In this document: in pieces, positions 46,074 to 48,450 of the stretch | Layout: each line of letters starts with the position of its first letter | Position numbering within the stretch: the first letter of the stretch is position 1 | Origin: a virus | Lineage: Duplodnaviria; Caudoviricetes | Reading direction: 5' to 3' (one strand) | IMG/VR virus record: IMGVR_UViG_3300020419_001132 | DNA length: 64,000 nucleotides | The notes under the pieces: generated by a model | Told to the model about the DNA's origin: nothing | Databases searched by the model: none | What the model saw: only the letters and a program-made list of their open reading frames with translations | Program-made: the position numbers and the translations under genes

Positions 46074-46505
46074 CTATTGTTTAGGTATGTTAACACTTAA
46101 TGTATTATTAACTGTTGAACCTTCCCTAGCACTAGCATCAATACCTATGCCGTAGATAGCAGTTTGTTCAGTACCGCCACCTTCTAGCTGTACAGTTCTA
46201 TTTCTAAGTTTTGTAACTTGGTAAACTGTTGAATCAGAACCTGTTGCATCAATTTTAAACTCTCCTGCAACTAATGCACCGTTAGCTTTGTTAACAAGTG
46301 TCATAAGTTCGTCGTCTGCATGTGTAGCAGGTGTAAACACGCCAGTTGCATTAGAATCTAATCTAATAACAAATTTATTATTACCAGCTTGTCTGTGAAT
46401 ATGTGCCGCTGATGTAGCTTCAGAACCACCTGTAAAAAAGTGTCTACTTACTTTAATACGTCCGGTACCAAAACCAATTTTGTCTTTGTTTATTGGTCTT
46501 CCCAT
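46074..46505 (-). CDS. Small structural protein (143 aa), stand-alone late transcription unit
   Basis: AAGGAG RBS; own GATAAATA motif at 46592-46599 and a downstream hairpin terminator. Confidence 0.7.
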   Translation of the reverse strand: MGRPINKDKIGFGTGRIKVSRHFFTGGSEATSAAHIHRQAGNNKFVIRLDSNATGVFTPATHADDELMTLVNKANGALVAGEFKIDATGSDSTVYQVTKLRNRTVQLEGGGTEQTAIYGIGIDASAREGSTVNNTLSVNIPKQ

Positions 46506-46609
46506 TGTTTTCTCCTTATCTTGACGTTCTAGGTCTACGCGGCGGGTAACCGCATAACCCCTCCATTATAGAGGTTCTCCTTTAACAATTATATTTATCA
46601 AATAAGGGA

Positions 46610-46830
46610 AAGTGTAAGATGCATTGGGAGGACTCGGTTATACCTCCAACCCCTCGACCGAGATGCCATTCTCAAATCCAGGGAGCCTAGTTCCGCTCGG
46701 GAGAGCGATGTGACTCAGCGTATTTCTACTACCAAACCTGGGTACCACCCCTAACTAGCCAAGTTCGACGCTCTGGTAAACGCCTCTTCCTTGCACAATG
46801 CTATTAATAAACCGTCGTCTACTAACAATA
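46610..46830 (-). ncRNA. Candidate structured non-coding RNA of unknown family
   Basis: ORF-free GC-rich block just downstream of a consensus sigma70 promoter; terminal stem GCAUUG/CAAUGC (46796-46801 with 46621-46626) and several internal stems. Confidence 0.6.
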
Positions 46831-46835
46831 TATAT

Positions 46836-46864
46836 ACTATAGCAAATACAATACTATTTGTCAA
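46836..46864 (-). promoter_or_regulatory. Host sigma70-type promoter
   Basis: TTGACA (46859-46864), 17-nt spacer, TATAGT (46836-46841). Confidence 0.8.
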
Positions 46865-46871
46865 CCTTTTT

Positions 46872-47114
46872 TTACGGTAAAATGTAAATTATTTTATCAA
46901 CTTGTCCAAAAATATCATATTTGTCAGCAAACCATGTCATATATGCTATATCTCCAATTATATATGCTAGTCCTATAAAGAATAAAGTTTCTACACCTAT
47001 TCTTATATAATCCTTACGTGTATATATGTGTTGATAATCTTCTTCATCCAATATTGCATATGCTACAGGTTTGCCCATATGTAATCTTACTATACCTTTT
47101 TTCTTAAATGCCAT
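46872..47114 (-). CDS. Small membrane protein (80 aa)
   Basis: One hydrophobic helix IGVETLFFIGLAYIIG. Confidence 0.6.
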   Translation of the reverse strand: MAFKKKGIVRLHMGKPVAYAILDEEDYQHIYTRKDYIRIGVETLFFIGLAYIIGDIAYMTWFADKYDIFGQVDKIIYILP

Positions 47115-47268: not shown

Positions 47269-48450
47269 TTAGCTGAAGCTTACGTTAGCATTAGTAATAT
47301 CTACTAATCCTAAGTAATCTGCCGCGTTACCAAGCGATGAAGCTGTGTTAGATAGCTCAACATATCCGTATCTAGTCATAAATGATACGACTGGCTCGAA
47401 TGATGATGGATCTAATACAACGCCACTTGACATCAATGGAATGTATGGGCAGTAAAAAGCGGCCGCATCTGATTCACTTGAACCTTTGTAACCAACTAAT
47501 ACGCCTGTACCGTCGCCTGCATATGAGTCAACATACACTCTCATTGCGTTGTTTAATGTACCAACGAATTTAGTGTTTGTTGGAGCTTCAAATGCACCTT
47601 CAGTTGTTCTTGCGAACGCTGAAGTTGTAGCACTTTGTAAGATTGTTAACGCAAATGGGCTAACAACTGCAAAGTTTCCTGCTCCTCTACGTGTACGCTG
47701 AGCAATCAAGTTTGATACTCTGTTAATTTGAACAGCGAGTGCCGCATGTTCGTCACCAACAAAAGTAGCAGTACCTGAAACTGCCGCTTGATCATAAGTT
47801 TCAGCGGCTGTACCTGCTAGTGTACGTAGGCTTGTTAGAACCTCTTGGTCAATTTCAGCAGTAATTTCTTGTGCTAAAGCCGCCATAATTTCAGCTTCAA
47901 CATCAATACCGTGCTGTGATTGTGCATCCTGAGCAGATTCAAAAGTCCATCTAGCTGATAGCTTTCTGGTTTTTGCTTCTACAGTTTGCTTGAGGATCTG
48001 AATTGACAGTCTGTTACCAGCCGCCCCTTCAAGTGCCGCAGTAGTATTCGCTTTACCTGCAGTACCGTCTCCAGAATAGGCTTGACCAATTCTGAATGGT
48101 GATAACGCTTCATCACCAGCTGTAACATCGTTAGCTGATCCTGTAGCGTTTTGAGTGTCCGCATAGCGTACTCTCAATGTGTGGATCTGACCCACTGGTC
48201 CAGTCATAGGCTGAACACCAACAATTTCATTTGCAATCACTGTTGGCATTACACGTCTGATAACTGGAAGAATAACTCTATTAAGAGTTGCAACATTACC
48301 GGCAGAAGTCGCACCAGCTGTGGCCGCCTCTTGCAAATACTGCTTAGTATTTTCAAGTGTGGTTGCCATTACGCTTTTCTTTGTGCCTTGTAGGCCTTCA
48401 AGAAGTGCTGTTTTGGTATCCTGCCAGCGACTTTCTAATAGTTCTGACAT
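47269..48450 (-). CDS. g23: Major capsid protein (T4 gp23 family)
   Basis: IVGVQPMTGPVGQI, TVEAKTRKLSARWTFESAQD, EITAEID, AFYCPYIPL, F(M)TRYG. Confidence 0.95.
   Translation of the reverse strand: MSELLESRWQDTKTALLEGLQGTKKSVMATTLENTKQYLQEAATAGATSAGNVATLNRVILPVIRRVMPTVIANEIVGVQPMTGPVGQIHTLRVRYADTQNATGSANDVTAGDEALSPFRIGQAYSGDGTAGKANTTAALEGAAGNRLSIQILKQTVEAKTRKLSARWTFESAQDAQSQHGIDVEAEIMAALAQEITAEIDQEVLTSLRTLAGTAAETYDQAAVSGTATFVGDEHAALAVQINRVSNLIAQRTRRGAGNFAVVSPFALTILQSATTSAFARTTEGAFEAPTNTKFVGTLNNAMRVYVDSYAGDGTGVLVGYKGSSESDAAAFYCPYIPLMSSGVVLDPSSFEPVVSFMTRYGYVELSNTASSLGNAADYLGLVDITNANVSFS

Follow-up and report, generated by a model that had tools for sequence, protein, structure and literature searches.

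A manA-family RNA behind a sigma70-type promoter, downstream of the capsid gene of an uncultured phage

The window analysed here, a stretch of 64,000 nucleotides from an uncultured phage (IMG/VR record IMGVR_UViG_3300020419_001132), carries a series of minus-strand features in the order gp21-type protease, scaffold-like protein, gp23-type major capsid protein, a hairpin, two small ORFs, a flagged stretch, a 143-aa ORF and fibre-like genes (Table 1). The flagged stretch had been singled out by an earlier, sequence-only reading as an ORF-free, GC-rich block with a consensus promoter pointing into it, and this description holds. The longest ORF across it in the ORF list is no more than 37 aa, its GC content is 0.51 compared with 0.27–0.38 in the flanks, and TTGACA-17-TATAGT is present on the minus strand, facing the RNA described below, with 11 of 12 positions agreeing with the sigma70 consensus and with the TG extension of an extended -10 element. 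Transcription is predicted to start at about 46829 on the minus strand. The promoter pattern occurs once in the 64 kb against 1.02 occurrences expected, which is not above chance. ARAGORN reports no tRNA and no tmRNA in the window, in keeping with the earlier reading, and Pfam and PHROG searches of the neighbouring genes reveal no toxin gene beside the RNA.

Table 1. Features of the locus, in the direction of transcription (coordinates in the 64-kb window)
Feature	Coordinates	Strand	Basis or remark
gp21-type protease	50197-49574	-	upstream of scaffold-like protein, then gp23
gp23-type major capsid protein gene	47269..48450	-	Pfam Gp23, 1.7e-99
Hairpin after gp23 gene	47250-47225	-	
80-aa ORF	46872..47114	-	ends 8 nt before -35 box; no family assignment
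sigma70-type promoter	46836..46864	-	TTGACA 46864-46859, 17-nt spacer, TGc, TATAGT 46841-46836
manA-family RNA (RF01745), helices P1-P9	46617..46827	-	Rfam cmscan, own covariance model, MFE fold, covariation
P1	46827-46802	-	GACG loop
P2, closing helix	46801-46796 with 46626-46621	-	GCAUUG/CAAUGC
P3, including L3	L3 46780-46771	-	L3 loop UUUACCAGAG
P4, junction helix	46758-53 with 46692-87	-	CUAGUU/AACUAG; encloses P5, P6, P7
P5/L5	46751-40	-	GUGGUA
P6	46738-12	-	GAAA loop
P7/L7	46707-46694	-	UCCC
P8/L8	46683-50	-	
P9/L9	46647-27	-	
Spacer with U/C-rich terminator-tail remnant	46600..46616	-	CUUUCCCUUAUUU; alignment with close relatives
T4-type late-promoter-like box	46592..46599	-	GATAAATA; invariant in all seven aligned relatives
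freshwater-2 RNA motif (RF02980)	46503..46575	-	54.2 bits vs cut-off 49.9; ends in RBS + ATG of 143-aa gene
143-aa gene, MGRPINK... family	46074..46505	-	ORF list; 21 relatives in viral contigs

The RNA of the flagged stretch belongs to an established family, manA (RF01745). In E-value mode over 651 nt, Rfam cmscan aligned it to the whole of the manA model (positions 1–192 of 192) with 54.8 bits and an E-value of 3e-13. The curated gathering cut-off of the family is 55.2 bits, so that the window copy lies 0.4 bit below it, and in gathering mode manA is missed on the window and freshwater-2 (RF02980) alone is reported. Hence, the RNA looks unannotated because its score falls just under the curated cut-off. 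Related copies score 64.0 (Pelagibacter phage Mosig), 60.0 (L011), 55.8 (L010) and 55.5 bits (L018); the window RNA shares 98.8% identity over 171 nt with the copy of 60.0 bits, and our own covariance model (R1) gives it 183 bits. It stands, like manA RNAs at large, upstream of a same-strand gene in marine phage or bacterial DNA. The sequence-only reading had called the RNA an orphan, had counted a match to a known family among its refuting outcomes and had proposed the comparison with Rfam, and the full-length match to manA that this comparison yielded overturns the claim. What the flagged RNA adds is thus a further member of a known family, and not a new class of RNA.

Folded by itself for minimum free energy (MFE), the window RNA takes on the manA architecture, all helices of which recur in the cmscan alignment. 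Its thermodynamic z-score of -1.85 is weak when taken alone; since the promoter count is likewise at the level of chance, it is conservation and covariation, both strong, that carry the case. Relatives in viral contigs were gathered from 21 loci through the downstream protein and from at least 120 more through a conserved sequence pattern. A plain MAFFT alignment of 10 copies, which was not fitted to any structure, has 78% of cells paired compared with 36–45% in slid controls, and 29 pairs changed on both sides compared with 6–14. The covariance-model alignment (100 sources, 88 hits, 79 distinct sequences among the matches listed) is by its construction biased towards the model, and the unfitted alignment agrees with it: 84% of cells are paired against 35–49% in slid controls, 47 of 53 pairs display compensatory changes, and the covariation score over these 79 sequences is 0.459 against at most 0.098 in controls. 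The nine-helix fold is therefore kept by compensatory changes across relatives. Furthermore, no reading frame is conserved across them, the shortest of the longest open stretches being 13–19 aa in every frame, which makes a small protein unlikely and agrees with the earlier description of a structured, non-coding RNA.

The collection of homologues and the covariation analysis had also been proposed at the outset, and most of the pairings noticed by eye stand up to them. The terminal helix GCAUUG/CAAUGC is present as P2, and the stems GGG/CCC, GUA-GAAA-UAC, CGCUC/GAGCG, CUAGUU/AACUAG and GGAGG/CCUCC are found in the MFE fold, in the manA consensus and in the pattern of covariation. The proposed stem CCAG(A)G/CUUGG gives way to CAAG/CUUG, which covariation prefers (CAUC/GAUG in L010). 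An interleaved arrangement had been suggested for GGAGG/CCUCC together with CUCGGU/ACCGAG, of which the former is retained and the latter is not: CUCGGU/ACCGAG is strong (-9.2 kcal/mol) in the window and in L011, its closest relative, only, and has no family-wide covariation (750 of 1000 permutations as good).

Comparison of the relatives places the RNA within a recurrent transcription unit. The promoter motif TTGACN-16/17-TGnTAnnnT stands at a fixed distance from the RNA in 55 of 79 distinct contexts among the matches listed, against a background of 0.16% of windows in the same loci, and ends 8–20 nt 5' of the RNA in the relatives among these matches. That the promoter serves the RNA, as the sequence-only reading had supposed, is borne out by this conservation and by the relatives in which the RNA even has a terminator of its own. 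Layouts were surveyed in 80 distinct contexts among the matches listed. A strong intrinsic terminator, consisting of a perfect 9–12 bp stem and a U run, follows the RNA after 5–13 nt in 34 of 72 contexts (background rate 0.73%), with eight more contexts having a terminator 21–110 nt downstream, again among the matches listed. L011, L017 and L022 are among the relatives that carry a terminator. An ATAAATA box, which we take to be the T4-type late-promoter consensus, comes after the terminator in these relatives and is followed by the next gene. Promoter, RNA, terminator and late box in this order make up the arrangement of a distinct early RNA gene embedded among late genes. A second layout has the ATAAATA box immediately after the RNA and gp32 behind it. 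The third, found in about 10 relatives among the matches listed, has an ORF 14–26 nt after the RNA and no terminator (for example rubrerythrin in Mosig, and peroxiredoxin), and is a true 5'-UTR arrangement.

The genes that follow manA include the MGRPINK family, gp32, Hsp20, mannose-6-phosphate isomerase, peroxiredoxin and rubrerythrin, and they have no pathway in common. Even the namesake neighbour, a mannose-6-phosphate isomerase (L029:10773-11420, minus strand), lies 239 nt after its manA copy, from which it is separated by a strong terminator at +6 and an ATAAATA box at +71. In two relatives the interval from g23 to manA holds a glutamine riboswitch aptamer (RF01739; L016:873-920 and L022:959-1005), which scores 43 bits where the cut-off is 35 and precedes a 50-aa ORF, such that glutamine, manA and freshwater-2 place three Rfam motifs within about 650 nt. 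Another relative, the 91%-identical L010, has an IscU/NifU-like Fe-S scaffold gene (L010:105-512, identified by visual inspection of its sequence) immediately 5' of the manA promoter, where the window has its small ORFs.

The window copy departs from the usual layout downstream of the RNA. Alignment with close relatives places the absence of a terminator stem-loop of about 35 nt immediately after the RNA, where the U/C-rich remnant of its tail is left in the spacer, and no terminator-like site is found downstream for several kilobases. Since there is no terminator after it, the window RNA may form the beginning of a longer early transcript. The box GATAAATA, presumably a late promoter given what we know of T4-like late promoters, comes next, as the sequence-only reading had observed in attributing to the downstream gene a late promoter motif of its own; four copies occur in the window, all on the coding strand, a count not above chance. 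Metatranscriptomes had been suggested as a further check, and pieces of the region do occur in Logan assemblies from three studies; these are contigs of depth 2–3 that give neither strand nor transcript ends and may include DNA carry-over, and are therefore weak evidence. One exact 151-nt contig from an RNA library joins the 3' end of the RNA to the spacer, and another spans the promoter, which reflects either upstream read-through or DNA carry-over.

Behind the late-promoter-like box lies the freshwater-2 motif, an element distinct from the flagged RNA. It precedes the same gene family in 20 related loci and, in the window and in L010-L028, stands 7–17 nt behind the invariant GATAAATA and in every case has the RBS and ATG of the small MGRPINK/MGRPLNK proteins after g23 at its end. 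This arrangement suggests that freshwater-2 serves as the leader on late phage transcripts of a single protein family. Two such paralogs are arranged in tandem in L010 and L011. Weak freshwater-2-like matches (18–21 bits, below the cut-off) at 112974-113020, 111865-111918 and 74571-74643 of G001, the viral record nearest to the window, may be related structured late leaders. The 143-aa gene itself is probably a late gene; its product has no Pfam or PHROG match, no tblastn match in cultured phages and no Atlas lead, and its AF2 model is of low confidence (pLDDT 46).

The capsid protein of the carrier is closest to those of Sinorhizobium phage Phosso (72% identity), Vibrio phage 2.275.O (71%) and PA5oct (68%). 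The record G001, of 117 kb, holds the same single manA copy and is rated 33% complete. Together, the jumbo-like capsid and the low completeness of so long a record indicate that the carrier is probably a marine jumbo myovirus, with a genome probably of about 350 kb. Both cultured jumbo relatives that were searched, Vibrio phage 2.275.O and Phosso, have no manA. The sole match to the DNA in a cultured phage is in Pelagibacter phage Mosig, a pelagiphage much smaller than the carrier, at 75.6% identity and in a different gene context. The presence of the RNA in this other context and its absence from the jumbo relatives point to exchange of the RNA as a module among marine phages.

According to Ren et al. 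(bioRxiv 10.64898/2026.07.01.735769), members of the manA family assemble in vitro into pentamer-based decamers and a 60-mer cage, held together by the intermolecular kissing loops L5-L7' and L8-L9', or, in another subtype, by L3-L8' and a contact between the GNRA loop L6 and its receptor (L6-P6'). These oligomers have been seen in vitro only, at high concentrations of RNA and Mg2+, and the preprint assigns the cages no biological role. Among the relatives collected here, the loops concerned are complementary beyond expectation. Native L5-L7 duplexes average -3.88 kcal/mol against -2.58 kcal/mol for non-native or permuted partners, and native L8-L9 duplexes -4.02 against -2.18 kcal/mol, with none of 2000 permutations as good in either case. 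The control combinations L5-L9 (-2.64 against -2.53 kcal/mol, 1257 of 2000 permutations as good) and L8-L7 (-1.74 against -1.64 kcal/mol, 862 of 2000) give no signal. L3-L8 is also favoured (-3.13 against -2.44 kcal/mol, 0 of 1000 permutations), a difference that may reflect clade structure alone. The partners change together, as GGUA/UACC, UAGU/ACUA and UUGU/ACAG in L5/L7, and as UGGUA/UAACCA, UGGAAU/AUUCCA, AAUGAU/AUCAUU, AGGAU/AUCCU and CUGAU/AUCAG in L8/L9. By these sequence comparisons the L5-L7 and L8-L9 pairings are kept by covariation, which would look the same for contacts within one molecule and between molecules. In L011 the L5-L7 pairing is stronger than in the window. The window itself is among the weakest of the set in both: its L7 is UCCC where relatives have UACC or ACCA, a single change, giving -2.5 kcal/mol for L5-L7, and its L8 is UGGC in place of UGGU. 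The pairing between the last two hairpin loops that characterises manA is accordingly seen to covary in the subfamily as L8-L9 and is weak in the window, at -1.8 kcal/mol.

We favour, with about even confidence, the reading that manA in this lineage is a stand-alone, early, self-pairing RNA. Its grounds are the RNA's own promoter and terminator, the separate late promoter of its neighbour and the lack of relation among the neighbours, together with the oligomers formed in vitro and the covarying contact loops. Host RNA polymerase would transcribe the RNA early in infection, and manA would be mainly an RNA gene in its own right, made up of promoter, RNA and intrinsic terminator, the following gene having a late promoter of its own; manA would not be primarily a metabolite-sensing switch. 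The folded particle would probably pair with its own copies through the covarying loops, as family members do in vitro. In the window, an early transcript would most likely begin with the RNA and run through the late box and the freshwater-2 leader into the 143-aa gene, except if the RNA is cut out of that transcript. The window copy also furnishes a point against a stand-alone RNA, since without a terminator, and with the 151-nt contig bridging its 3' end and the spacer, it looks like a leader.

Such a leader is what the family was first taken for. manA was proposed as cis-regulatory and rated a probable riboswitch by Weinberg et al. 2010 (PMC2864571), and Rfam types the family as Cis-reg. 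On this account, which we consider possible though doubtful, the RNA senses a metabolite or a condition and controls terminator read-through or translation early in infection, the late promoter then giving unregulated late expression. It would explain why manA is always upstream of a same-strand gene, why an ORF begins 14–26 nt downstream in about 10 contexts among the matches listed, and why the terminators begin as close as 5–13 nt behind the RNA, a spacing shared by many riboswitch expression platforms; a mixture of terminator-type and RBS-proximal layouts is indeed typical of real riboswitch classes, and the window copy, with no terminator before the 143-aa gene, is physically a leader. 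The terminators themselves, however, are perfect, self-contained hairpins. Their arms have marginal complementarity to the RNA, as judged by an anti-terminator test in which 24 of 500 and 18 of 500 permutations were as good and the effect was about 0.4 kcal/mol, a result compatible with a switch. No ligand of manA was named in any paper that our literature search found, the genes downstream belong to no common pathway, and in most cases a late-promoter box of the gene's own stands between it and the terminator. Furthermore, defined homo-oligomers such as those of the manA family members are unusual for riboswitch aptamers.

The RNA could alternatively be a structural module of the 5' end that either protects the transcript from 5'-end-dependent decay or directs its processing, with neither ligand nor trans target. 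In every context the predicted transcript opens with the RNA, the promoter ending 8–20 nt before it, and the genes that follow are unrelated, which is what such a module would lead one to expect. It is nonetheless unlikely, because it leaves unexplained both the strong terminator right after the RNA in 34 of the 72 contexts among the matches listed and the two covarying loop-loop pairings; the 5' stabilisers known to us are, moreover, far simpler than a nine-helix fold. The suggestions of the sequence-only reading, namely that the RNA imitates 6S RNA as a decoy for RNA polymerase, acts as an antitoxin or against defence systems, or is a ribozyme that cleaves itself, are very improbable: a length near 200 nt and an early promoter would suit them, and the sequence is compatible with a trans-acting anti-defence role, but the 6S, ribozyme and toxin-antitoxin RNA families give no Rfam match at E-values up to 10, the fold is multi-branched with nine helices and not a rod with a central bubble, and no toxin gene adjoins the RNA.

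Returning to the stand-alone early RNA, a more specific version of it can be put forward tentatively. In this version manA would be an autonomous early gene and no riboswitch, its product would assemble in the cell into pentamer-based particles or cages through L5-L7 and L8-L9, and the window would represent a fusion to a late-gene message brought about by loss of the terminator. Since 2010 manA has stood as a riboswitch candidate without explanation, and its members are reported to form RNA-only cages in vitro (10.64898/2026.07.01.735769). To this the locus and its relatives add genomic evidence, namely the promoter and terminator that the RNA usually possesses, the unrelated genes downstream, and cage loops that are complementary in nature. 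The choice between a stand-alone particle and a leader switch is now testable in defined transcription units, one of which is in the cultured Pelagibacter phage Mosig.

Among known systems, ROOL and GOLLD are large, phage-borne, ornate RNAs reported to form RNA-only multimers in vitro; they are several times longer than manA and belong to unrelated families, and the window RNA has no sequence or model match to either (Rfam, E-values up to 10). The neighbouring element at 46575-46503 agrees with the freshwater-2 model (RF02980) in ending in an RBS and ATG, and is separate from the flagged RNA, being downstream of manA and behind the late-promoter box. With the manA consensus (RF01745) the window RNA shares the order of helices, the GUG after P2, the GUGGU loop of L5, the GNRA-capped P6, an ACC-type L7, the UUG before P9 and the GGUA...AGUCC hairpin of P9; it differs in the P3 region, which reads GCAAGGAA...AACUUG where the consensus has aCUGAAUAA. 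In comparison with the cages (10.64898/2026.07.01.735769), the subfamily has complementary and covarying L5-L7, L8-L9 and L3-L8 loops and the window L6 is a GNRA loop, whereas the cages were observed in vitro, the present data are the complementarity and covariation of the loops, and the contact loops of the window are weak. The marine phage habitat is common to our set and to the manA RNAs of PMC2864571, and the genes downstream in the relatives (mannose-6-phosphate isomerase, Hsp20/ibpA and redox genes) match those of that paper. The carrier, however, is an uncultured phage with a jumbo-like capsid and neither a cyanophage nor Photobacterium, and in the lineage described here the RNA usually comes with a promoter and a terminator of its own, which the annotation of 2010 did not point out.
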